64,000 bases of DNA from Bacilli bacterium (GCA_017416535.1 JAFQCG010000005.1:141708-205707), one strand, 5' to 3'; positions 4,342 through 63,188 are shown, counted from the first letter of the stretch. Program-made: numbers and translations. Notes: generated by a model not told the origin, from the sequence alone.

Positions 4342-5298
4342 TTAATTTAATAAAAAGTTCATTATTAAGTCGATAATAATTTTCTTTTCTTTAGGATTAC
4401 TTTCTGCAATTAGTAGAGTTAATGCTACTAAGGTGTTATTATCTATAACCTGTTTATTATCTATATATAATATATTATAAAATTGTAGAAAATATATAAA
4501 TAGTGTTGCAGCTATTCGTTTATTTCCATCTATAAAAACATGATTTTTTACTATCATATATAGAAAGTTTGCTGCTTTTTCTTCTGTTGAATTATATACT
4601 TCTTTATTATCATAAGTTTGATATATATTATTTATTATTGATTCTAGTCCATTATTTCTTTCCAATGCAAATAATTTGCTTTCTTCATTAAATCGAAGCT
4701 TTTTAATTATATCCATACAATTTCTATATGTTATTTTTTTAGTACTTGATTTTCCTTTTACTTTTGTTAATGTATGATGGTCATAATCGTCTAAAATATC
4801 TAATGCTTTTGAATAGTTACCTATTACTTTTAAAATTTCTTTAGCATCATTATTTTCTAGTCTTTCATCCATTCTATTAGCAATATCAATTAGTTTTACT
4901 GTTTTTTCTAAGTAATCTAATCTTTGCTTATTTACTGCATATCCTTTTAACATATAGTCTTTTAATACTTTTGTTGCCCATTTTCTAAATGCTACTCCTT
5001 GTGTTGAATTTACTCTATATCCAACACTTATAATCATATCTAAGTTATAATATTCAACCATATGCATCTGAGTTTTTCCTTTAATTGCACCGTGGTCAGT
5101 GGTGTTCGCAAATTTTGCGACAACCACTTCATTACTTAATTCCTCTTTAAGTGCATTATTTATATGCTTTCTTATTGTTTTAAAATCTCTATTAAATAAT
5201 TGAGACATTTGTTGTGTATTAAGCCACACAGTTTCATCTTGCATATTTACTTCTAGTTTTACATTTTGATCTTCAAATAATATTATTTCATTTTTCAT
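4342..5298 (-). CDS. RhuM-family protein with C-terminal Fic/Doc domain
   Basis: N-terminal region is RhuM-like (VWLNTQQMSQLF...TIRKHI). C-terminal HVFIDGNKRIAATL fits the Doc/Fic core HxFx(D/E)GNKR. RBS GAAGGAGAT upstream. Confidence 0.7.
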   Translation of the reverse strand: MKNEIILFEDQNVKLEVNMQDETVWLNTQQMSQLFNRDFKTIRKHINNALKEELSNEVVVAKFANTTDHGAIKGKTQMHMVEYYNLDMIISVGYRVNSTQGVAFRKWATKVLKDYMLKGYAVNKQRLDYLEKTVKLIDIANRMDERLENNDAKEILKVIGNYSKALDILDDYDHHTLTKVKGKSSTKKITYRNCMDIIKKLRFNEESKLFALERNNGLESIINNIYQTYDNKEVYNSTEEKAANFLYMIVKNHVFIDGNKRIAATLFIYFLQFYNILYIDNKQVIDNNTLVALTLLIAESNPKEKKIIIDLIMNFLLN

Positions 5299-5372
5299 TT
5301 TATTATCTCCTTCTTTCTTTTGTTTTTTTTAGTTAATAACTTTATTATTTTTTAATCACCTCCTTTCAAAGC

Positions 5373-5411
5373 AAAAAAAAGGGAATACCTTGCCTTTTGC
5401 AAAGTATTCCC
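5373..5411 (-). terminator. rho-independent terminator (GGGAATAC..GTATTCCC stem plus U8) downstream of the TSCPD/femAB genes
   Basis: Perfect 8-bp stem with an A8 run on plus, which is U8 on minus. Confidence 0.6.
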
Positions 5412-48076: not shown

Positions 48077-48751
48077 TTATTCTTCTACAACACTTTGTAA
48101 TTCTGCAACATAAATTGTTTGTGTTGCTTTATCAAAATTTGTACATGTAATTAATGTTAATGTTGTTTTATCGTAGTTTCTATATATTGCTATTGTTCCT
48201 GTTTTTTGTTGCTTATAGATGTTTACGATTTTATATGTGTATTTTTTTCCTTTATATGATATTTCTGCTTTGTCTCCTGTTGATAATTTGTATAAATCAT
48301 TAAAGAATGCTTTCCATCCTGATCCAGAGTGTGCGGCAATTATTAAGTTTCCTTTCTCCTTATCAGGATAAGAAGAACCTTCTATTACCGTAATATTTTG
48401 TTCAATATTGTTTAACTTGGATCTCATATCTAAGAAACCTTTTTTTAGGTTAATCTTTGGTATTGTTAAATAACCAATATATTCATTAGTTACTTCCCCT
48501 AGTTCTTCTTCCTTTTGTTCTTCTTGTAATTCTCCGTCGTGTTCTAATATTTCAACTTCTTCAGCTTGATAGAAGACGTTAGCCATATAATCATAGGCCA
48601 TTACTCTTTTAGATTGAACATAATTATATGAAAGAAAGAATCCTCCTATTAAGATTATAACTGAACCGATGACAGCTATCGTACTAGAAGAGATTCTTTT
48701 TTCTTGTTTTCTATTATCTTGCTTTACCATTCTTGTATACGTAACTAACAC
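48077..48751 (-). CDS. sortase (class B/D-like transpeptidase)
   Basis: N-terminal TM anchor, catalytic IAAHSG (His) and TLTLITC (Cys). Overlaps the adhesin stop. An internal ATG at 48730 is an alternative start. Confidence 0.8.
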   Translation of the reverse strand: MLVTYTRMVKQDNRKQEKRISSSTIAVIGSVIILIGGFFLSYNYVQSKRVMAYDYMANVFYQAEEVEILEHDGELQEEQKEEELGEVTNEYIGYLTIPKINLKKGFLDMRSKLNNIEQNITVIEGSSYPDKEKGNLIIAAHSGSGWKAFFNDLYKLSTGDKAEISYKGKKYTYKIVNIYKQQKTGTIAIYRNYDKTTLTLITCTNFDKATQTIYVAELQSVVEE

Positions 48752-50231
48752 CTGCAGCGATTATTACAATACCTAATAATGTGATAATTAATGAAGAAGA
48801 TGCAGTGTCTGGCACTGGTACTTCTGGATGGTTTTCAAATGTTATTTGATGTGATAATTCAGTATCTGAGATTATAAATTTCTTAACTTCAGAACTGTGT
48901 TTATATCCATTTGGTGCACTTACTTCTTCAACTGTATATGTACCATTTGCTAAATCTGTTAATACATATGGTTCAGTTGTTGATGTAAATTGTGCAACTG
49001 TATTTCCTGCAGAATCTTTTACTAATAGAACTGCTCCTGCTAAAGCATTTCCTGTTGAAGCATCAACTTTTACGATATTAACAACTGTTTTTCTTGGTGT
49101 ATTTTCAACTTTGATTTTAATATCTCTATTTGTATTTGTAATTGTAAATTTAATTGGAGTCTTATTTAATAAGTATCCAACTGGTGCTTTAGTTTCTTCA
49201 ACTGTATAAGTACCATTTGGTAAATTTCTAATTACGTGATAGTTTGTTGTTGATGTCCAAGAAGTTTTTATATTTCCGTTAGCATCTTTTACAACTAATG
49301 TTGCTCCTGCTAATGAATTTCCTGTTGTTGCATCAACTTTAACTATACTTACTTTTGATGATTCAATTTCTAATGATAGTTTTGCAGTTACATTTACTGT
49401 TTCTTTTTCTGGAATTGAAACTGTAACTGGTTGCATACTATCATCTGTTGGTTTATATTCATATGCTTTGTATACTACTCCTGTAGCACTTGCAGATATA
49501 TTAATTTTTAATGATGTTCCACTTACTGAACTTACTGGAACTTTTACTTTAAATTTTTCTTTAACACCAAAAGATGTTTTTGCATTACCATTTGCATCTA
49601 CTAATTGAATGTTGTTTGCACCAGTTGCTGATACTTTATAAGATGAGATATTGCTATATGATTTAGCATAAATATCTTCTGAAACGTAGTAGTTTCCTTC
49701 TAATTTCATATCAAAATTTGATGCTGTTAATGCTAATGATGTTTTTGCATATCCTGCTTTTTTAGCAGCTTCTGCTTTAGCAACTAAATCTTTGATTGTT
49801 GATCTTAAGTTGTAATCGTCTGATCCTGTTACTTTGAATTTTTGACTTAAGTTTGACCCACCTGCTGTATTATCTAAATACCACCAAAGAGCTGTTTGAG
49901 TGATATAGTAGTCTTTCATTTTATCTCCTGTGAAAGACTTATTTGGATAACCGTTAGTTATGATATACGCAACTCCGGCATCTTTTTCACCTACTAAGTT
50001 AGCAGTGATATTTTTTGCTGTCTTTTTATTCATATTAAGACAGTATAATAATGTACCATCAGTTTTTGTTTTAGTAGTAAATTTTACTCCTGCAACATAT
50101 CCAGGTACGATTTCTGCTCCACCTAATTTAATAGATGAGGCTACTGCACTAGTATTAAGAGATGTAAATAAAATTGCAGCACTAATTAATACTAATAAAA
50201 GTTTTTTTGTTAATTGTGTTAACTTTTTCAT
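48714..50231 (-). CDS. thioester-domain (TED) surface adhesin with two CnaB/SpaA-type Ig domains and a C-terminal sorting signal (VPDTA, TM, KNGKAR)
   Basis: Signal peptide. TED motifs LLYCLN (Cys) and ITQTALWWY (TQxA[IV]W). Two tandem about 85-aa repeats (VKVDATTGN.LAGA.L.VKD..GN). C-terminus PVPDTASSS plus hydrophobic stretch plus KNGKAR. Confidence 0.8.
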   Translation of the reverse strand: MKKLTQLTKKLLLVLISAAILFTSLNTSAVASSIKLGGAEIVPGYVAGVKFTTKTKTDGTLLYCLNMNKKTAKNITANLVGEKDAGVAYIITNGYPNKSFTGDKMKDYYITQTALWWYLDNTAGGSNLSQKFKVTGSDDYNLRSTIKDLVAKAEAAKKAGYAKTSLALTASNFDMKLEGNYYVSEDIYAKSYSNISSYKVSATGANNIQLVDANGNAKTSFGVKEKFKVKVPVSSVSGTSLKINISASATGVVYKAYEYKPTDDSMQPVTVSIPEKETVNVTAKLSLEIESSKVSIVKVDATTGNSLAGATLVVKDANGNIKTSWTSTTNYHVIRNLPNGTYTVEETKAPVGYLLNKTPIKFTITNTNRDIKIKVENTPRKTVVNIVKVDASTGNALAGAVLLVKDSAGNTVAQFTSTTEPYVLTDLANGTYTVEEVSAPNGYKHSSEVKKFIISDTELSHQITFENHPEVPVPDTASSSLIITLLGIVIIAAGVSYVYKNGKAR

Positions 50232-50972: not shown

Positions 50973-51559
50973 ATGAAAAAGAAATTTATATTAGTTAGTT
51001 TATGTGTAATATTATTATTTGTTATTGCATGTAGTGTGTTATTTGACTTTAGAAAAGAAGATAATAACCTAAAGAAAATTACTGTTGCGGAGGTTGCTCA
51101 TACTATTTTTTATGCGCCTCAATATGTAGCACTTGAACTTGGTTATTTTGAAGATGAAGGTCTTGATGTAGAACTTATGCTTGCAAATGGAGCTGATAAA
51201 GTTACTGCGGCTGTGTTATCTGGAGATGCAGAGATTGGATTTTCTGGAAGCGAGGCAACAATTTATGTGTACAATGGTGGAGAAAAAGACTACTTACAAA
51301 CTTTTGCTCAATTAACACAAAAAGATGGTTCTTTTCTAGTATCTAGAAAAAAGATTGATAATTTTACATTGGATGATTTAAAAGGAAAAAGAATTATTGC
51401 TGGTAGAGCTTATGGTATGCCAGAAATGACATTAAAATATGCTATTAAGAAAAATGGTATTGATCCTGATAAAGAACTTGAATTAGACACATCTGTTGCT
51501 TTTGCAGCAATGAGTGGTACATTCATTGCTGGTGAGGGAGATTTTGTTTCATTATTTGA
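50973..51559 (+). pseudogene. 5' part of an NMT1/ThiY-type ABC substrate-binding lipoprotein gene (sulfonate/nitrate/thiamine-precursor class), interrupted by a mobile element
   Basis: Lipobox LLFVIAC; ...AGEGDFVSLFE, then the sequence enters the element. The ORF-track product from 51560..51677 (HNVTKRMYFCTFLF...) is junk read-through. Confidence 0.7.
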
Positions 51560-51560
51560 A

Positions 51561-51577
51561 CATAATGTAACAAAAAG
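51561..51577. repeat. left terminal inverted repeat of the element
   Basis: CATAATGTAACAAAAAG; reverse complement present at 57547-57563. Confidence 0.7.
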
Positions 51578-51601
51578 AATGTACTTTTGTACATTCTTAT
51601 T
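51578..51601 (-). terminator. perfect palindrome AAGAATGTAC tttt GTACATTCTT just inside the left element end, probable terminator for the first cargo gene
   Basis: 10-bp perfect stem with 4-nt loop; on the minus strand it is followed by TTTTTGTT, which is the TIR. Confidence 0.5.
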
Positions 51602-52394
51602 TCATTACTTTTTTTATTACTTTTTCTATATGTCCTTTTTTACTTGCTTCAAAGTGATTTGTATTTTCTTCTTCTAACATATAATTTATTCCTAACTGTT
51701 CAAGTAAATCTGGTTCAAATACTACTATTCCATCACTTCTACTTGATGTTACTTTTTTAATCATATCATCAAGCTCTAATACTAAGGAATTATTTTCTTT
51801 TTCTCTATCAATGTAACTTCCTACTACTAGCAATTTATTTAAATCTACTTTAGTTAAGTCTATGCCTTTAAAATTATCTTGTTCAAATCCGTATTTTGGA
51901 TTAACTATTAGTTTTAGCATTTCTACGATTAGTTTTTGTCTTTGTGTAAAAAATCTTTTAAAATCTTCTAGATAATATGGATTTGCTAGAGGAGTTCCGA
52001 CAATCGATGGATGTATAGCTATTACTTTATCTACTCTTTCTGAGGTGGTTGCTAGTGATGCAATTATTCCACCGAAACTTTCTGTTACAAATATAACATC
52101 ATTTAGATTAGATTCTTCTAATGATTTTATTAAATTATCGGTAAAGTTCTCTGCATTATATTGTTCTTTATTTTTAGAAGATAGTGGATAATCATAGAAC
52201 CAAGAGCCTGTAAACATATTATGTCCAGGATCAAATGTATAACCGGTTTGCTCTAAAGCATGAAATCTATGTTCCATTTGCCCGCCAATATAAATTATTG
52301 GTTGTTCATTTTTATTTAATTTCTTTTCATCAATATATAAACTACCAAGTTCATTAGGTTTATATCTTTTCTTTTCATTACGATAGTTAATCAT
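51597..52394 (-). CDS. hypothetical protein, possibly alpha/beta-hydrolase fold (VTESFGG nucleophile-elbow-like motif)
   Basis: 265-aa ORF inside the element. The [ST]xSxG-like motif is tentative. An 8-nt overlap with the upstream ORF suggests coupling. Confidence 0.4.
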   Translation of the reverse strand: MINYRNEKKRYKPNELGSLYIDEKKLNKNEQPIIYIGGQMEHRFHALEQTGYTFDPGHNMFTGSWFYDYPLSSKNKEQYNAENFTDNLIKSLEESNLNDVIFVTESFGGIIASLATTSERVDKVIAIHPSIVGTPLANPYYLEDFKRFFTQRQKLIVEMLKLIVNPKYGFEQDNFKGIDLTKVDLNKLLVVGSYIDREKENNSLVLELDDMIKKVTSSRSDGIVVFEPDLLEQLGINYMLEEENTNHFEASKKGHIEKVIKKVMK

Positions 52395-53256
52395 TCTTTT
52401 CTCCAGAATTATTGTTTCTTTTTTTAGAAAACATAAGCGGACTTATACCTCTGAATGTTTCCATCTCTTTCTTTAAATATTCAGCTTCTTGCCATGCTTC
52501 TGGAAAATATTCTTTTGTTTTTTCAAATTCATAACGATATTCTGCGAAAGATGGACTTTCTACGTCTATTAGTGGTTCTAATAGTAAAATCATATCCGCT
52601 AAAGCATTTGATTCACTTATCATTTCTTTATATTTTTCTTTTTGTTCTTCTGTTCCTTCGCTTATTTTTATAGAATGTTTTGTTTCCATATTATATGTTT
52701 CTTTAAACCAATCACTTCTTAATATTCTTTTTGTTAATACATCTACTAAATAATCTACACCATTAATATTTACTTCAACAAATGGTCTAGTTTCTTCTAG
52801 TCTTACACCTTCTCTTGTAGGTGAATCATATATTGCATCTATAAATGTTGCGTCATCAAATATTGCTGATACAGCATAGTTAGGGTCATATACACAACTA
52901 CGTCCTACTTTTACTGGTGGTCTTGTTAATCTTAACGAGATTGGAACACTTCCAGTAATATAGATTGATTTTTTTCTAAATTCTTCTTTCATCCATAATG
53001 GTATTCCACATATTCTTGGATGTTCTTCATAACAATAATGATTTGTGTCATCAACTATTTCTAATTTATCTAAATCAAGTGATTGTTTTGTTGGATCAAT
53101 TAATTTCTTTGAAACTAATGCTTCCATTATTGTTGCTTCTATTGATTCTCTTTCTAGTGGCGGCATATCAGGATGAGCCTCAATATAATCTAGAATATGC
53201 CAGCATCTATAAAAGACATCATTTGTTAATAATTCATAATCTACTAAACTTGCCAT
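52387..53256 (-). CDS. hypothetical protein (cargo of the mobile element)
   Basis: 289 aa with its own RBS AAGGGGGAA; no recognisable motif. Confidence 0.4.
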   Translation of the reverse strand: MASLVDYELLTNDVFYRCWHILDYIEAHPDMPPLERESIEATIMEALVSKKLIDPTKQSLDLDKLEIVDDTNHYCYEEHPRICGIPLWMKEEFRKKSIYITGSVPISLRLTRPPVKVGRSCVYDPNYAVSAIFDDATFIDAIYDSPTREGVRLEETRPFVEVNINGVDYLVDVLTKRILRSDWFKETYNMETKHSIKISEGTEEQKEKYKEMISESNALADMILLLEPLIDVESPSFAEYRYEFEKTKEYFPEAWQEAEYLKKEMETFRGISPLMFSKKRNNNSGEKND

Positions 53257-53277
53257 AGTAATTCCCCCTTAAGTGCC

Positions 53278-54210
53278 TCATATTATAACAAATCTATTGT
53301 TTTTAGTCAATTTGTTAAGTCTTTTATTAGCTTTATTCCAAAGATATTCACTTATTATTGGTGGGAATTTTTCATAATCTTTATACATTATCCACTTATT
53401 TTTAGGAATCAACTTTACTTTTTTAGTCATATAGTCAATTACTTCACATTTTCCTCCAACATAATATCCTTTATATTTTGGATTTCTTATTAATCTTGAA
53501 AGTGCTGTTGCACTAAAGTGTTTATTATTAGTAGTTTTTATATTTTTGGATTTTAAAATCCTGGCTATTTCGTGAAGAGATTTATTTTTTGTTGCATATA
53601 ACTTATATATTTCATTTATTATATTTGCTTGTTGATTATTTATTATATACTTATCATTTATTTTTTTATAACCATATATTTTTTGATTTCCTAAGATAGT
53701 TCCTTTTTTTATTGATTCTTTCATTCCAAACTTTACTCGTTCTGATAGCTTTCTTATTTCATCTTGAGCAAGGGAAGACATTATTGTTAATCTTAATTCA
53801 CTATCAGGTAATATTGTATTTATATTATCATTTATAAATAATACTCCTACTCCATTTTTTAAAAGTTCTCTTGTGTATTTTATACTATCTAGTGTATTTC
53901 TTGAAAAACGGGATATTTCTTTAGTAATAATTAAATCAAATTTATTTTCTTTAGCATCATTAATCATTTTCATAAAACTTGTTCTTTTTATATCTGATGT
54001 TCCTGTTATACCATTATCTATATATCCTTTACTATAAATCCAATTTTTATTTTTATTAATTATTTCTTCAAAATAACTTTGTTGATTTTTAAGAGAAGTC
54101 TTTTGTTCTTCGCTTGTTGTTGAGACTCGTGAATAATATGTTACTCTTAGAGGTATATTTGTTAGGGGAATTCCTATACTTAGTTCTTGTCTAACTTTAT
54201 ATAAGTCCAT
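53278..54210 (-). CDS. serine recombinase (resolvase catalytic domain plus recombinase domain, lacks zinc-ribbon/coiled-coil)
   Basis: YYSRVSTTSEEQKTSLKNQ (catalytic Ser region), DLIITKEISRFSRN, C-terminal recombinase-domain-like YGYKK...IARILKSKNIKT...NPKYKGYYV; 310 aa. Confidence 0.8.
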   Translation of the reverse strand: MDLYKVRQELSIGIPLTNIPLRVTYYSRVSTTSEEQKTSLKNQQSYFEEIINKNKNWIYSKGYIDNGITGTSDIKRTSFMKMINDAKENKFDLIITKEISRFSRNTLDSIKYTRELLKNGVGVLFINDNINTILPDSELRLTIMSSLAQDEIRKLSERVKFGMKESIKKGTILGNQKIYGYKKINDKYIINNQQANIINEIYKLYATKNKSLHEIARILKSKNIKTTNNKHFSATALSRLIRNPKYKGYYVGGKCEVIDYMTKKVKLIPKNKWIMYKDYEKFPPIISEYLWNKANKRLNKLTKNNRFVII

Positions 54211-54280
54211 TTTATATACTCTTTCTATTCATAAAAAAATCACATCCTAATTTAGGATATGATTTATTTTGTTATTTATT

Positions 54281-55624
54281 CTAATCTTGTTTTTGTTCTA
54301 AATCTACTGACTTGATAGTTAATAAATATAAGTCATCATTATGTTTAATATAGAAACAGCATTTTGTATGTTTTGTTACTACATAGTACATAATTGGTAA
54401 TTTTAAATTATCTCTTACGTCTAGTAATTCTTCGAACTTTGATATTTTAATCACATTTGTATTACTTGTATCTGGACCTGTTCCATTTTCAACAATTAAT
54501 CTATCATATTCATTTAGAATTTTTTCTACGTATTTATCATAGATTGATTTTTTTCCTCTTAATAAGATTAGTAATCTTAAAGTTTTAATTCCAAATACTA
54601 ACATAGCAATTAGAGATATTATTGATAAAATGCCAAATATAATATTATCTGTTTTTGTATCGATGTTTTGAATTACATAATTAGAATTATTAATATCTTG
54701 ATAGTTTAATTCAATATTAATTGCCTTTTCAGATAATGGTATTTTAACAAACATAGTACTATTTTCAACTGCATTAGAGGCATTTTCAATATTAGTATTT
54801 TTATTTACTCTTAAATATACAGTTAAGTAACTTGTTGTATCTAATCCAAATTGTTGTTTAAAACTGTTAGCTAAATTATTATAGTATGCATAATCAATTT
54901 TAACTTTTTCATTTAAATTATAATTTGTACCAGATTTTATACTTTTTCTTTGATTATTTAATAAAACGTATTCTTTTTCAAAGTAATTATTTTTTGATGA
55001 GCCATCATCTATTGTTAGTTTAGCTACAATACTATAATTGAAATCTACATTTGAAGGTTTTTCAATATTATAATTATATCTAAAATTAATTTCTATATTA
55101 TCAATTAAGTTAGCTATGTATACTTTGTTTTTTCCTAAATAATCTGATTCATAGAAATTATTTTCTTTTAAGTATACTTTGTAGTCAAGATTACTCATTT
55201 CATTATAGTTAATCATTTGATTAGTTGTTTTACTAAAAGCTCCTTGAAGAAAGATGATTGTGATTATGAATAATGCTATGAAAGTTAGAGAGTTTGCTAA
55301 TAATCTTGTTTTATAATCTACGTAATGTTCACTTTTATTAGTTACATTATTTAAAAAACTTTTCTTTTCAGTTTTTTCTTCTATTGCTTCGCTTTCATCA
55401 TATACAAAAATATCATTTTCATATGTTTCTTCATATTGAGGTAACTCTTCATTTTCAGTTTTTATTACTCTTTCTTCATGAGTAATTTCTTCTACTTGTT
55501 CTTCTGTTTGTTCTTCATTATTTAATTCTTTGTTTTCATCAGCAATTTCTTCACCAATTATTTCTTCATCAAATAATTCTTCTATATTTTCACTCATAGT
55601 CAACCTCCTATTTTTACATTTCAT
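54281..55624 (-). CDS. two-TM membrane protein with acidic N-terminus and N/Y-rich extracytoplasmic domain; possibly a DUF5305-like SipW/TasA-operon partner
   Basis: 447 aa. Located immediately downstream of the sipW-like gene with an 11-nt overlap. Confidence 0.45.
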   Translation of the reverse strand: MKCKNRRLTMSENIEELFDEEIIGEEIADENKELNNEEQTEEQVEEITHEERVIKTENEELPQYEETYENDIFVYDESEAIEEKTEKKSFLNNVTNKSEHYVDYKTRLLANSLTFIALFIITIIFLQGAFSKTTNQMINYNEMSNLDYKVYLKENNFYESDYLGKNKVYIANLIDNIEINFRYNYNIEKPSNVDFNYSIVAKLTIDDGSSKNNYFEKEYVLLNNQRKSIKSGTNYNLNEKVKIDYAYYNNLANSFKQQFGLDTTSYLTVYLRVNKNTNIENASNAVENSTMFVKIPLSEKAINIELNYQDINNSNYVIQNIDTKTDNIIFGILSIISLIAMLVFGIKTLRLLILLRGKKSIYDKYVEKILNEYDRLIVENGTGPDTSNTNVIKISKFEELLDVRDNLKLPIMYYVVTKHTKCCFYIKHNDDLYLLTIKSVDLEQKQD

Positions 55625-56741
55625 TTAACCATACTGTAGGTAAACCAAGATATGGTATAACAAATTCTACTGTTCCAATAATTGTATCTTGTTCTACTAC
55701 GTAGTTATCTTCTTTTGCATTAGCATCTCCTTTTGTATATACATAATACTCACCTTTTTCTTCTATTATGTTTACAATTCTATGAACTACTAATACTCCA
55801 TGATATGTATAAGCAATTACTTGCCCTTTTTCTAATTTATCATATTGCTTATCTATTTTTTCAATTACTACTATATCACCTTTTGAAATTGCTTTTTCCA
55901 TACTACCACTTGCAATTGCGACTGCATAGTAATGGAAATATCCAGATGTAAAATATACTAATATTGTTACTAATACTGTAGGTATAATTAAAGACCAGGC
56001 AGATGTTTTATTATAATTTCTATCTACTTCTTGATCTGCTGTTAGATTGAAAAATCCACTTAATTTATATCCTAATAATATTGGTAATAAAAACCTTATA
56101 ATTGATGCAATATACTCATTTGGATTTGGTACTAAAGGTAATAAGTATTGATATAAATTCATTACTAGTAAATATAATATGTTTGGTTTATATCCAACTT
56201 TAAATGTTAAATATGAACATACTATATTTGTGCTAATTGCAGGTAATAATGTTAATGCAAAGAAAATAAATGTATCATACTTTGATGAAAACCCATTATA
56301 AAATATCGGATTTGTTACATCTAAAAAGATAAATAATATACATGATAATATCATTAGTATTTTATTACCTTCTGATTTCATAATAACTTGATATCTTAAA
56401 AATTCTTTTAATATTATTGTTATTATGATTGGTATTATAAATGTTTTTATACCATTTAAAGTATAGTAATTATCAGTTCTTGCAAAACCTATTATTAATC
56501 CTGATAAATAGTATATTAAGAAAAAGATTAACAGAAAAATTATTACATCAAATATAATATCTTTTGTAAAACGATGTCGATCTTTTTCAATTCCAAAAAA
56601 CAACTTAAATATAATTATTGTTAATATTAAAAATACTATTGTTGTGTAATTTCCTAATATGTTATGAATAAAACTATTTAGGATTAGTATGAAAAACATG
56701 ATAAGTTGAAATATTAATAATTTTTTGTACCCTCTTTTCAT
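55614..56741 (-). CDS. SipW-type (ER/archaeal-type, Ser/His) signal peptidase I fused to an N-terminal about 250-aa polytopic membrane domain
   Basis: C-terminal IASGSMEKAISKGDIVVIEK...VLVVHRIV...YTKGDANAKED matches the SipW SGSMEP / HRI / KGDAN motifs. Preceded by about 8 TM helices. Confidence 0.75.
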   Translation of the reverse strand: MKRGYKKLLIFQLIMFFILILNSFIHNILGNYTTIVFLILTIIIFKLFFGIEKDRHRFTKDIIFDVIIFLLIFFLIYYLSGLIIGFARTDNYYTLNGIKTFIIPIIITIILKEFLRYQVIMKSEGNKILMILSCILFIFLDVTNPIFYNGFSSKYDTFIFFALTLLPAISTNIVCSYLTFKVGYKPNILYLLVMNLYQYLLPLVPNPNEYIASIIRFLLPILLGYKLSGFFNLTADQEVDRNYNKTSAWSLIIPTVLVTILVYFTSGYFHYYAVAIASGSMEKAISKGDIVVIEKIDKQYDKLEKGQVIAYTYHGVLVVHRIVNIIEEKGEYYVYTKGDANAKEDNYVVEQDTIIGTVEFVIPYLGLPTVWLNEM

Positions 56742-56798
56742 CCTTTCCCTCCTATATTCTATATACTAGGAAAGACACAATTTTTTTGTGTCTACATT

Positions 56799-57455
56799 TT
56801 AATCTACTGTGTCGTATTTAAGTGTAATGTCACCAAATGAAACATTGAAGTTTCCGTCTGCTCTATTTCCACCAGCAGCATATGATATTTTAACTACAAC
56901 TTTTTCTTTTGTATTTTTTTCTAATTTATGATTGCTGATAGTTGCTTGCGATCCAGATACTGCTGCATCATCTCCAACCTTAACTGTTACTGATATTGAT
57001 TCACAAGCTGCACTAACTAATGAGGCAGTTGTTGTAGCAGGATTTGTTGCTGCACAATATCTAGGTGCTGATTGTCCCTCTACATTTGCAAAGACAATTG
57101 AATTTAAATATGCATCATATTCTCCTTCATTGTGTACATAGAAAGTATATGATACTTCTTGTCCTGGCTGTGTAACGTTTGCTTTTAAACCAGAGATTCT
57201 TGCTCCTGATACTGTTGCTTGAGATGCATAGTATCCTAAATTGTCAGATTGTGCAGGTGTTCCAACAACACTTGTTGTGATTCCTGATTCACTTCCTGAT
57301 AAGTTAATTTTGAAATTTTCACTACTTGGACTTACATATGCACTTGATGATATTGTTAAAGTGTTTGAGAAAGCTGCAAATCCTAAAGTTAAACCAAATA
57401 CAGCAACTACTAGTGCTACTACTGCAATAATTTTTGAACTTCTATTCTTTTCCAT
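56799..57455 (-). CDS. TasA/camelysin (peptidase M73) family secreted fibre protein with SipW-cognate-type signal peptide
   Basis: Signal VVALVVAVFGLTLGFAAFSN (compare TasA GGGTWAAFND). NVTQPGQEVSYTFYVHNEGEY resembles the TasA beta-sandwich core. Confidence 0.75.
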   Translation of the reverse strand: MEKNRSSKIIAVVALVVAVFGLTLGFAAFSNTLTISSSAYVSPSSENFKINLSGSESGITTSVVGTPAQSDNLGYYASQATVSGARISGLKANVTQPGQEVSYTFYVHNEGEYDAYLNSIVFANVEGQSAPRYCAATNPATTTASLVSAACESISVTVKVGDDAAVSGSQATISNHKLEKNTKEKVVVKISYAAGGNRADGNFNVSFGDITLKYDTVD

Positions 57456-57546: not shown

Positions 57547-57563
57547 CTTTTTGTTACATTAAG
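57547..57563. repeat. right terminal inverted repeat of the element
   Basis: CTTTTTGTTACATTAAG; inverted copy of 51561-51577. Confidence 0.7.
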
Positions 57564-57564
57564 A

Positions 57565-57969
57565 GAACCTAATGCATTAGAAATTGAAAAAAATGGATAT
57601 GGCTATGTTGTTGCAAGTGTTGGCGAAATTGGAGGGATTGTTCCTTATACCTCTTATTCAGCAAGAAAAAGTTATATAGAAAATAATAATGATGAAATAA
57701 ATAAGTTTACTAGAGCAATCCAAAAAGGTTTGGATTATGTTCATAATCATAGTGATAAGGAAGTTGCAGAGGCAATACTTGATCAATTTCCAGATACATC
57801 TTTAAATGATTTAGAAAAAGTAGTAAAAAGATATCGAGAAATAGATGCTTGGCCTAAAACAACTAGTTTTAGTAAAAAATCCTTTGACCATTTACAAGAT
57901 ATAATGGTTGACTATGGAGCAATTAATGAAAAAGTTAATTATGATAAGTTGATTTACAATGAAAAATAA
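57565..57969 (+). pseudogene. 3' part of the interrupted NMT1-type ABC substrate-binding protein gene
   Basis: In-frame continuation (E)PNALEIEKNGYGYVVASVGEIGG...KLIYNEK*; overlaps the downstream ABC ATPase start by 11 nt. Confidence 0.7.
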
Positions 57970-61942: not shown

Positions 61943-62767
61943 TTAATATCCTTCTTTTAATCCAGCACTATCATAGAATAAACTTCTTCCACCTTCTTGA
62001 TATTTTTTAGTATATCTAAAGTAGACAAAAATAGGTTTTCCGGTAGAAGTTATATACACGTAATTATCACATGTACAACGATCTTGATCAGCCATCTTTT
62101 TTGTTAACATAAATTCATCATCAAATTCATTAACAATATCTTTGTAGTTTATAAAGTTATCTTTTGTATACTCATTTACTTGCATCATTGATATAAATCC
62201 AACCTGATTTATTTGAGTATCATTTAAACTTTCTAAGAAATTAATTACTTCTTTTTTACTATCAATATAATCTTTTATTAGTAAACAATTTATTCGTAAG
62301 TCCGCTTTGCTCTTTAGTTGTTTTATTTTATCAAGTGTGATTGTTTTAGTTTGAAATACTTCATTATTTTTTTCATCTAAATAATGATGTCTACTTAATT
62401 GAATTGATTCAATTGGATACTTATTTAACATTGGAAGTGTTTTTTCTAATAATATACCATTGGTATTAAGTGTAATTCTGGGATCGTATTTTTTTAGTAG
62501 TTTTAATAAATCTTCCAAGTTTTCACAGTTTAGTAGAGTTTCTCCTCCGCTAATTGAAAATCTGCTTATTTTTTTATGTACTATGTCTATTATACTTTCC
62601 AACTCATTTAGATCTAATTTTCCAAAGTTCTTATTACATTCATTTGAACAAAATTTACATTTGGCATTACAAATATTTGTTACATTAATATAAAATGGAA
62701 ATTCATTACATGGTGAACATGCATATTCTTTTATATTATATTTTTTACCATTAACATCTAATTCCAC
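61943..62767 (-). CDS. radical SAM enzyme (small, 274 aa, no SPASM domain)
   Basis: CX3CX2C NICNAKCKFC, SISGGETLL (GGE motif). GTG start preceded by TAGGAAAT. Overlaps the 3' end of the repeat-peptide gene by 17 nt. Confidence 0.75.
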   Translation of the reverse strand: MELDVNGKKYNIKEYACSPCNEFPFYINVTNICNAKCKFCSNECNKNFGKLDLNELESIIDIVHKKISRFSISGGETLLNCENLEDLLKLLKKYDPRITLNTNGILLEKTLPMLNKYPIESIQLSRHHYLDEKNNEVFQTKTITLDKIKQLKSKADLRINCLLIKDYIDSKKEVINFLESLNDTQINQVGFISMMQVNEYTKDNFINYKDIVNEFDDEFMLTKKMADQDRCTCDNYVYITSTGKPIFVYFRYTKKYQEGGRSLFYDSAGLKEGY

Positions 62768-63188
62768 TTTGATTTCCTACTTCTTTATTTATTGGTAAAA
62801 TCATTTTTGAATAAGGTTTCTTACTTGAGAATGAGCTTCCACATGACGGATGTCCTCCAATGTTTCTATTATTTGAACTTCCACATGAAGGATGTCCTCC
62901 TCCATATCCCCAACCGCGACTCGAACCACAAGATGGGTGTCCTCCTCCATATCCATAATCATCATTTGATGTTCCACATGATGGATGTGCCATCATTGTA
63001 ATTTGATCACTTTCTTGAAAATAATTTTCATTAATTTCATATCCATGTTTTCTTAATGCTTTATTAAACACCTCTCTTGATTGTGGTGTTGCGAATAGGA
63101 ACGGACATAAATTTCCTAAATCTTCAACCGATTGAACTGGATTTTCTGAACGTCTAAATATTTTTTCAATTAATTGTTCTTGTTTCAT
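62751..63188 (-). CDS. 145-aa peptide with four tandem G-G-H-P-S-C-G-[ST]-S repeats; candidate radical-SAM-modified precursor or metal-binding repeat protein
   Basis: RBS GGAGGGAAAC before ATG 63188. About 67-aa N-terminal region, then AHPSCGTS...GGGHPSCGSS...GGGHPSCGSS...GGHPSCGSS, and a C-terminal Cys. DNA shows 4 copies of CCACATGA(A/T)GGATGTCC on plus. Confidence 0.6.
   Translation of the reverse strand: MKQEQLIEKIFRRSENPVQSVEDLGNLCPFLFATPQSREVFNKALRKHGYEINENYFQESDQITMMAHPSCGTSNDDYGYGGGHPSCGSSRGWGYGGGHPSCGSSNNRNIGGHPSCGSSFSSKKPYSKMILPINKEVGNQSGIRC

Follow-up and report, generated by a model that had tools for sequence, protein, structure and literature searches.

Introduction

AbpX-type systems are known from AbpX of Pyrodictium abyssi and from abpX loci of Bacillota, for example in Clostridium amylolyticum (bioRxiv 10.64898/2026.01.04.697558; PMC12518558). 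In archaea and Bacillota, these loci encode a signal peptidase of the TIGR02228 family with ten transmembrane (TM) helices, together with a DUF5305 protein (bioRxiv 10.64898/2026.01.04.697558). Here we describe a locus of similar make-up in a 64,000-nucleotide stretch of a Bacilli genome (GCA_017416535.1, JAFQCG010000005.1:141708-205707; hereafter the window), in which three consecutive genes encode a secreted 218-aa protein, a 375-aa signal peptidase and a DUF5305 protein. We consider it fairly probable that this trio is a single operon encoding an extracellular TasA-superfamily fibre, with a locus make-up of AbpX type, carried as cargo of a 6.0-kb insertion that is probably fixed.

The combination of AbpX-type subunit, multi-TM peptidase and DUF5305 protein was already present in a preprint of January 2026, and the DUF5305 protein of AbpX loci has exactly the same architecture as the one described below (bioRxiv 10.64898/2026.01.04.697558). 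DUF5305 proteins have been proposed to be accessory subunits of the dedicated peptidase (bioRxiv 10.64898/2026.01.04.697558; PMC11821415), and papers on haloarchaeal Tat-fimbriae (Tafi) make the same proposal for the TafD/TafG pair (PMC11821415, PMC12337348). All mentions of DUF5305 that we found in the literature concern TasA-like archaeal filaments. For TasA of Bacillus, aromatic residues at P2 and P2' block LepB and make the cleavage site a substrate of SipW (PMC10269814), and TasA fibres are reported to form via donor-strand exchange (PMC9674648).

Results

The three-gene operon

ORF calling placed six head-to-tail open reading frames (ORFs) on the minus strand across 51597-57455. The trio, described in an earlier note on this DNA as three consecutive, overlapping genes, was found in full on that strand: the fibre subunit gene (56799-57455, 218 aa, secreted), the signal peptidase I gene (55614-56741, 375 aa) and the DUF5305 gene (54281-55597). 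The genes are indeed consecutive; the overlap did not survive. A 57-bp spacer separates the first two, and for the third an AGGAGG lying seven bases ahead makes the ATG at 55597 the likeliest start codon. The resulting length of 438 aa agrees with public gene calls, whereas the longest ORF extends to 55624 (447 aa), and with the start at 55597 the 11-nt overlap with the peptidase gene disappears. The spacer contains a hairpin with a 7-bp stem (56773-56793, minus strand), which may be a partial terminator giving a high ratio of subunit to peptidase. The same kind of sequence scan found an intrinsic-terminator-like hairpin with a T-run directly 3' of the DUF5305 gene (54237-54265, minus strand), and we therefore read the trio as one operon, closed ahead of the recombinase gene. 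A fibre promoter at the right end of the element, as suggested earlier, is not demonstrable, because the promoter scan there gave a lone sigma-70-like match and such matches were no commoner than in shuffled AT-rich sequence. The 64-kb window holds no paralogue of the trio.

The 218-aa subunit has a Sec signal peptide (residues 1-27) ending LTLGFAAFSN, within which the GFAAFSN noted earlier is present and GFAAFS is invariant across 48 aligned homologues. From the sequence we infer cleavage at A27/A28 (GFA/AFSN, the slash marking the site), and this predicted site shares its P2-P2' pattern with TasA, whose P3-P4' residues are TWA/AFND. The signal peptide is followed by an N-terminal donor-strand-like segment, AFSNTLTISSSAYV, and then by a beta-sandwich body. 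In the 48-homologue alignment the mature AFSNTLTISSSAYV is invariant or almost so, and the cysteines C134 and C151 are invariant. The first 14-18 mature residues alternate between hydrophobic and polar and find no place in the monomer model, in which residues 28-45 have a pLDDT of about 55 and are without secondary structure. The mature N-terminus AFSNTLTISSSA alternates as does the AbpX donor strand QWSETLSLSATI; its pattern fits W2/L6/L8/A10/I12 of AbpX, and mature position 2 is Phe, aromatic as in AbpX.

Comparison of the subunit family with the AbpX family by hhalign gave E 1.5e-4 over 105 columns, with a common stretch PGxxVxxTFxxxNxG. The AbpX profile in this comparison was thin and held five homologues, as a word-indexed search with AbpX gave only 5 close homologues; against the single AbpX sequence, alignment was confined to the signal and donor strand. 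Among the top structural matches of the subunit model, those with the longest alignments were donor-strand filaments, and TasA itself was not among the top ones. Searches of PDB sequences with the subunit, as a single sequence or as the 48-homologue profile, found nothing and no TasA chain. The family is large: a word-indexed search returned 403 relatives, and an exhaustive profile search of 1.84 billion representatives returned 2,667 clusters at 50% identity (E<=1e-3). That search gave no bridge to TasA, the best 150 listed being all close relatives, and none of the clusters checked carries a Pfam domain. Some family members (P0375, P0348) have C-terminal BspA-type leucine-rich repeats (LRR_5), likely an adhesin domain. 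Taken together, the best placement for the subunit is within the wider TasA superfamily, its locus having an AbpX-type make-up.

Judged by its motifs and profile matches, the 375-aa protein is an endoplasmic reticulum (ER)/archaeal-type signal peptidase I of the SEC11-like Ser/His kind. Its C-terminal 105 residues pass TIGR02228, the archaeal/ER-type model (79.8 bits, cutoff 51.85), and fail the SipW equivalog NF046067 (60.5 bits, cutoff 190). The motifs SGSME (278-282), VHRI (319-322) and KGDAN (337-341), correctly recognized in the earlier note, are present and invariant; in alignment, SGSME, VHR and KGDAN match up with the Ser, His and Asp of the human SEC11A active site, and S280, H320, D339 and D345, all within the catalytic domain (residues 270-375), are invariant in the homologue alignment. 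Among PDB sequences, human SEC11A and SEC11C matched best (E 1e-8 from the single sequence and 1e-12 from the profile), and bacterial Ser/Lys peptidases of the LepB type were not significant there (bacterial signal peptidase, E 0.16), so the C-terminus is not of the LepB type.

Hydropathy and an AlphaFold model agree on eight helices in residues 1-235, then an anchor helix (249-267), then the catalytic domain; the eight-TM domain proposed earlier ahead of the peptidase part is thus borne out, with the peptidase's own anchor helix in addition. With the basic N-terminus inside and nine spans, the catalytic domain is predicted to lie outside, as had been expected. The model of residues 1-235, with pLDDT of 71-96 per ten-residue block and at least 82 in most, resembles in fold comparison the eight-helix CPBP membrane fold of Rce1 and SpdC. 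The motifs of CPBP/Abi proteins are EExxxR, FxxxH and HxxxN/D. Of these, K-E113-x-x-R116 and F137xxxD141 are what remains here, and no helix has an invariant His. Because the catalytic histidines are absent, the modelled domain is most likely a non-catalytic scaffold, like SpdC, and not a second protease. The predicted CPBP fold without catalytic histidines would be new here for the 8-helix domain of these peptidases: the AbpX preprint makes no mention of CPBP, CAAX, Rce1 or mobile elements (bioRxiv 10.64898/2026.01.04.697558), and no CPBP-signal peptidase I fusion was apparent in the titles and abstracts of literature naming both terms.

A protein search found 1,416 relatives of the peptidase; among 120 listed, nearly all are 373-377 aa long and come from 'Bacilli bacterium' metagenome-assembled genomes (MAGs). 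The fused multi-TM and catalytic architecture is the norm of a large peptidase family and not unusual, contrary to the impression of an exceptional fused SipW in the earlier note; the archaeal AbpX-linked peptidase is alike, and the layout is described in the preprint (bioRxiv 10.64898/2026.01.04.697558). When the peptidase was compared with plasmids and phages by tblastn, matches were confined to the catalytic domain and fell mostly on haloarchaeal megaplasmids.

The third protein passes the DUF5305 model PF17231 (46.8 bits, cutoff 29), as its provisional description as DUF5305-like had implied. It consists of an acidic cytoplasmic N-terminus, a first TM segment (106-134), an outside domain, a second TM segment (324-357) and a cytoplasmic C-terminal domain. 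The outside domain contains 19% Asn and 10% Tyr, compared with 6.5% and 5.6% in the long ORFs of the window. A two-TM protein with an Asn/Tyr-rich extracytoplasmic domain had been predicted, and both features were found, at a likeliest length of 438 and not 447 aa. By analogy with the characterized systems, we propose that this protein may be an accessory subunit of the 375-aa peptidase.

The insertion and its relatives

The six ORFs lie within a 6.0-kb insertion that splits the gene for an NMT1-type substrate-binding protein of an ATP-binding cassette (ABC) transporter. The 5' part (50973-51560, plus strand, 196 codons) ends DFVSLFE at 51560, and the 3' part (57565-57969, plus strand, 134 codons) resumes with EPNALEIEK at 57565 as an open frame without a start codon before 57730. 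The left attachment (att) arm, TAATGTAACAAAAAG (51563-51577), and the right arm, CTTTTTGTTACATTA (57547-57561), form a perfect 15-bp inverted repeat; the right one lies within the 109-bp spacer between the subunit start codon and the insertion end. The 4-bp GAAC occurs at both junctions (51558-51561 and 57565-57568), and the crossover point must lie within it. With inverted-repeat arms, a recombinase and a split host gene, the proposal that the fibre module sits inside a serine-recombinase element is confirmed.

A scan for the recombinase across 185,579 species genomes yielded 34 loci. In seven of them (L014-L018, L020, L021), a recombinase 54-64% identical to that of the window lies beside the LFE/PNA codon of the same binding-protein gene, and in three (L016, L018, L021) both gene halves flank insertions, of 6.9, 8.5 and 3.4 kb respectively. 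The cargo of L014 and L016 is the fibre trio with a protein of about 895 aa, and L015, L017, L018 and L021 carry other cargo. L025-L027 have an intact LFE/PNA codon and, at residue ~97 instead, a more distantly related recombinase. Four loci in other Bacilli (L001-L004) have the fibre trio without any recombinase. Since the trio occurs with and without a recombinase, and cargo differs at the same site, the fibre operon is optional cargo of a family of site-specific insertions. We regard the carriage of a fibre operon by an integrative element as modestly new.

The ~895-aa surface protein (L014 14798-17479; L016 6063-8753) follows the trio, has an N-terminal aromatic cleavage motif (SIGWSAYES/GS) of the kind found in the subunit and is absent from the window; that of L016 contains Listeria-Bacteroides repeats. 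It is a candidate for a large second substrate or tip adhesin. In different Bacilli MAGs, serine-recombinase insertions have struck this one ABC-transporter operon at three points, namely at residues 196/197 of the binding protein, at about residue 97 of the binding protein (L025-L027) and at about residue 140 of the ATPase (L014, L015, L017). The recombinases of the ATPase-gene insertions are 25-26% identical to that of the window.

The recombinase gene of the window (53278-54210, minus strand) encodes a truncated large serine recombinase of 310 aa with Resolvase and Recombinase domains only (PF00239, 103.6 bits; PF07508, 73.8 bits), which matches phrog_95 integrase (E 5e-85). Full-length relatives at the same site have 532-546 aa and Cys-rich zinc-ribbon regions. 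Binding and pairing of att sites by large serine recombinases depend on the zinc-ribbon/coiled-coil region. In the window the ORF ends just past the Recombinase domain and no remnant of the C-terminal zinc-ribbon/coiled-coil part was found anywhere; the recombinases of L005, from a sister species, and of L016 are truncated at the same boundary. The 289-aa ORF, which continues in the same frame past the stop, was considered as the missing C-terminus and rejected, because alignment beyond residue 302 was noise and crossed two stops, and because the ORF has its own ribosome-binding site (RBS).

All 18 contigs examined that have an identical neighbouring ATPase gene and reach the site carry the insertion in the same place, as do all eight examined with an identical peptidase. 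A restored gene would contain TTTGAACCTAATG, its attB junction TTATTTGAACCTAATGC and the joined arms (attP) GTTACATTAAGAGAACATAATGTAAC; exact searches of JGI metagenome contigs, where the species may be absent, found neither the restored-gene junction nor the joined arms. At its other end, the block in the sister species L005 is no longer next to the 5' half of the gene. L005 also has, just past the transporter genes (4384-5379), a 331-aa ORF with a Zn_ribbon_recom domain; it is 22-26% identical to full-length recombinases and resembles a piece of a different large serine recombinase. The recombinase truncation and the presence of the insertion in all contigs make present-day mobility doubtful, and the insertion is probably fixed in this genome because its recombinase has lost the C-terminal DNA-binding part. 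The earlier description of the element as horizontally mobile holds for the family, given related recombinases at the same codon elsewhere with different cargo and some sites uninterrupted, and is doubtful for the copy at hand, with its truncated recombinase and its presence in every contig.

To quantify selection, we compared the window with L005 at synonymous divergences (dS) of 0.7-1.2, at which all six insertion genes were under purifying selection. The ratio of nonsynonymous to synonymous divergence (dN/dS) was 0.24 for the truncated recombinase, and 0.21-0.27, at dS 0.7-0.76, for the recombinase and both downstream genes. For the 3' fragment of the binding-protein gene (window 57565-57966, L005 6765-7166) dN/dS was 0.17, and its first 55 codons, which have no start codon in the split state, gave dN 0.094 and dS 0.60. 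Such constraint would not be expected of a gene whose interruption predates the split between the two species. It is unexplained unless the gene is occasionally restored, and counts against a simple relic.

Other genes of the insertion and its surroundings

The two genes downstream of the recombinase encode a 289-aa protein (52387-53256, minus strand), with no function assigned, which in the sister species is conserved together with the recombinase, and a 265-aa protein (51597-52394, minus strand), the last of the insertion, with weak alpha/beta-hydrolase-like matches only. The former had no PADLOC or PHROGs match; the latter had no PHROG match and one weak PADLOC match (Orf5, E 4.7e-4). A bidirectional terminator-like hairpin follows the 265-aa gene (51575-51598).

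Outside the insertion, 1.3 kb from its left end, a 505-aa surface protein with thioester (TED) and SpaA-type domains is encoded beside a sortase gene (48714-50231 and upstream; compare L006 119-2273). It is probably unrelated to the fibre operon because it lies outside the insertion and the strain variant L008 has other genes there. L008 also has a second, shorter DUF5305 gene (1372-2352, 326 aa), placed immediately upstream of the split gene for the binding protein; the window has phosphoesterase, TED and sortase genes at the corresponding position. Farther along (61943-63188, minus strand), a 145-aa ORF with four HPSCG[ST]S repeats overlaps the start of a 274-aa radical-SAM protein, which has Fer4_12 and Radical_SAM domains in public gene calls; the pair looks like a repeat-containing peptide precursor and its maturase.

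Discussion

Gene content, domain identities, catalytic residues, topology logic and fold similarities were read directly from the locus and its models, and together they suggest how the trio might work. The 218-aa precursor would be exported via Sec, with a signal-peptide site, aromatic at P2 and P2' (F-A/A-F), that an ordinary bacterial leader peptidase would handle poorly. The ER/archaeal-type domain of the 375-aa protein would cut off the signal peptide on the outside of the membrane, and cleavage would liberate the N-terminal amphipathic strand AFSNTLTISSSA. The freed strand could then enter the beta-sandwich of the next subunit by donor-strand complementation, producing a fibre. The CPBP-fold domain and the two-TM DUF5305 protein may together serve as a membrane platform, keeping hold of the signal helix and orienting the catalytic domain. 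Polymerization and the roles of these two membrane components are what we infer. The insertion itself would have been made by a large serine recombinase at a single codon (LFE/PNA) of the binding-protein gene.

Several results weigh against an AbpX-type fibre operon. The subunit has no Pfam or NCBIfam match at E<=10, including Peptidase_M73 (PF12389), TIGR04088 and other SipW-substrate models. Its assignment in the earlier note to the TasA/camelysin family, for which Peptidase_M73 had been chosen beforehand as the test, is therefore abandoned, and of the SipW-cognate signal proposed there, which TIGR04088 does not recognize, the motif-level likeness of GFA/AFSN to TWA/AFND is what stands. Foldseek comparison of the subunit model with the PDB gave nothing at E<1e-3, the TasA fibre 8aur being at E 0.02, and the hhalign alignment of the subunit family with AbpX has a probability of 51%. 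Mature position 4 is Asn, compared with Asp or Glu in AbpX, and the mature subunit has a pI of 4.98 and 8.9% Asp+Glu, compared with about 4.0 and about 15%. No second subunit, tip or anchor gene with an AAF-type signal was found in the 64-kb window. For the peptidase, the N-terminal 246 aa have no Pfam match at E<=10, including PF02517, and the CPBP-like domain gave no signal among PDB sequences, so that its support comes from fold alone.

With these points in view, the subunit might be a monomeric beta-sandwich, secreted or on the surface, such as a binding module or a wall-associated protein, with the special peptidase serving only the aromatic site and no fibre being made. We think this unlikely. 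The near-invariant, alternating 14-18 residues after the cleavage site, unplaced in the monomer model, are a donor-strand signature; the structural matches with the longest alignments are donor-strand filaments; and the characterized systems that pair DUF5305 with a dedicated peptidase all make filaments.

A different question is whether the insertion is still active. The 6-kb block could be a domesticated, still excisable gene-splitting cassette, in which the 310-aa recombinase, alone, with the 289-aa protein or with a recombinase supplied in trans, rejoins the transporter gene. Excision would explain the constrained 3' fragment, including its 55 untranslatable codons, the constraint across two species on the truncated recombinase (shared by both downstream genes) and the perfect 15-bp inverted repeat of the att arms, and L014 shows a full-length recombinase together with a fibre operon. 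If this were true, the lineage would alternate between a state with the fibre operon present and the transporter split, and a state with the transporter restored. However, the zinc-ribbon/coiled-coil region is missing without remnant in the window, the 18 and eight contigs all hold the insertion at the same place, the JGI metagenome contigs, in which the species may be absent, contain no empty-site or circle junction, and in L005 the far end of the block has parted from the 5' gene half. We therefore regard an excisable cassette as improbable and retain a probably fixed insertion.

Finally, a Bacillus-type tapA-sipW-tasA matrix operon that moved horizontally, with a canonical TasA/camelysin (Peptidase_M73) protein and a SipW orthologue, is very improbable: the cleavage-site motif closely resembles that of TasA and the peptidase is ER-type, as is SipW, but Peptidase_M73 and TIGR04088 find no match, the SipW equivalog scores 60.5 bits against a cutoff of 190, SipW is without the 8-helix domain, TapA is absent with DUF5305 in its stead, and TasA is not among the top structural matches of the subunit.

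An AbpX-type fibre operon in this genome would extend AbpX/TasA-type matrix-fibre systems to a large unannotated family, of about 2,700 clusters, in uncultured low-GC Bacilli of the gut and rumen. We know of no work on surface fibres or biofilm in these organisms. A CPBP/Rce1/SpdC fold for the multi-TM body of the peptidase would suggest a membrane-scaffold role in the handling of signal peptides. The loci at LFE/PNA also show that a fibre operon can move as the cargo of a small, site-specific serine-recombinase insertion, with one transporter operon as the recurrent target of such insertions.

Comparison with known systems

The B. subtilis skin element with SpoIVCA is a gene-splitting element with a large serine recombinase. 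The insertion described here resembles gene-splitting elements (fdxN/XisF) and SCCmec/Ccr in its Resolvase and Recombinase domains, with weak NCBIfam matches to CcrB/C and XisF, in precise insertion within a coding sequence, in inverted-repeat att arms and in relatives specific for the same site. It differs in its size of 6 kb, in having no phage or conjugation genes, in its 310-aa recombinase and in its fibre-operon cargo. The membrane domain of the peptidase, compared with the CPBP/Abi proteins Rce1 (PDB 4cad) and S. aureus SpdC (PDB 6u0o), is unmatched by PF02517, is without the FxxxH and HxxxN/D histidines, having FxxxD instead, and is fused to a signal peptidase.

In B. subtilis tapA-sipW-tasA, as here, a gene for a dedicated ER-type Ser/His peptidase lies beside the substrate gene, and the substrates share an aromatic P2, Ala on either side of the cleavage point and Phe at P2' (TWA/AF and GFA/AF). 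Unlike the peptidase here, which fails the SipW equivalog, SipW has about 190 aa and no CPBP-fold domain; TasA belongs to the Peptidase_M73 family, which the subunit does not match; and that operon includes TapA, which has no counterpart here. To our knowledge DUF5305, present here, is absent from the Bacillus operon. In haloarchaeal Tat-fimbriae, the pair of peptidase TafD and DUF5305 protein TafG adjoins the donor-strand pilins TafA and TafE (PMC11821415, PMC12337348), an arrangement like that of our locus, but the pilins mostly have Tat signals, and TafD, with four TM segments and two domains outside, does not have the 8-helix CPBP fold.

The comparison with AbpX is the closest. The subunit similarity is weak (hhalign probability 51%), the subunit here has Asn at mature position 4 and is much less acidic, and genes for a minor subunit, tip, anchor or regulator are lacking. 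The operon here belongs to an uncultured low-GC member of the Bacilli from the gut and lies within a serine-recombinase insertion. In both systems, nevertheless, the subunit is about 217 aa long, carries a Sec signal and two Cys, is aromatic at mature position 2 and has a donor strand of alternating pattern, and the start of the mature protein has no structure in the monomer, as modelled here and as reported for AbpX. The P. abyssi peptidase, with 380 aa, has its catalytic domain in the same position and aligns with the 375-aa protein at hhalign E 1e-19, both share a helix-4 [KR]ExxR motif (REMVR in P. abyssi, KEFLR here), and in both a DUF5305 gene stands alongside the subunit and peptidase genes.

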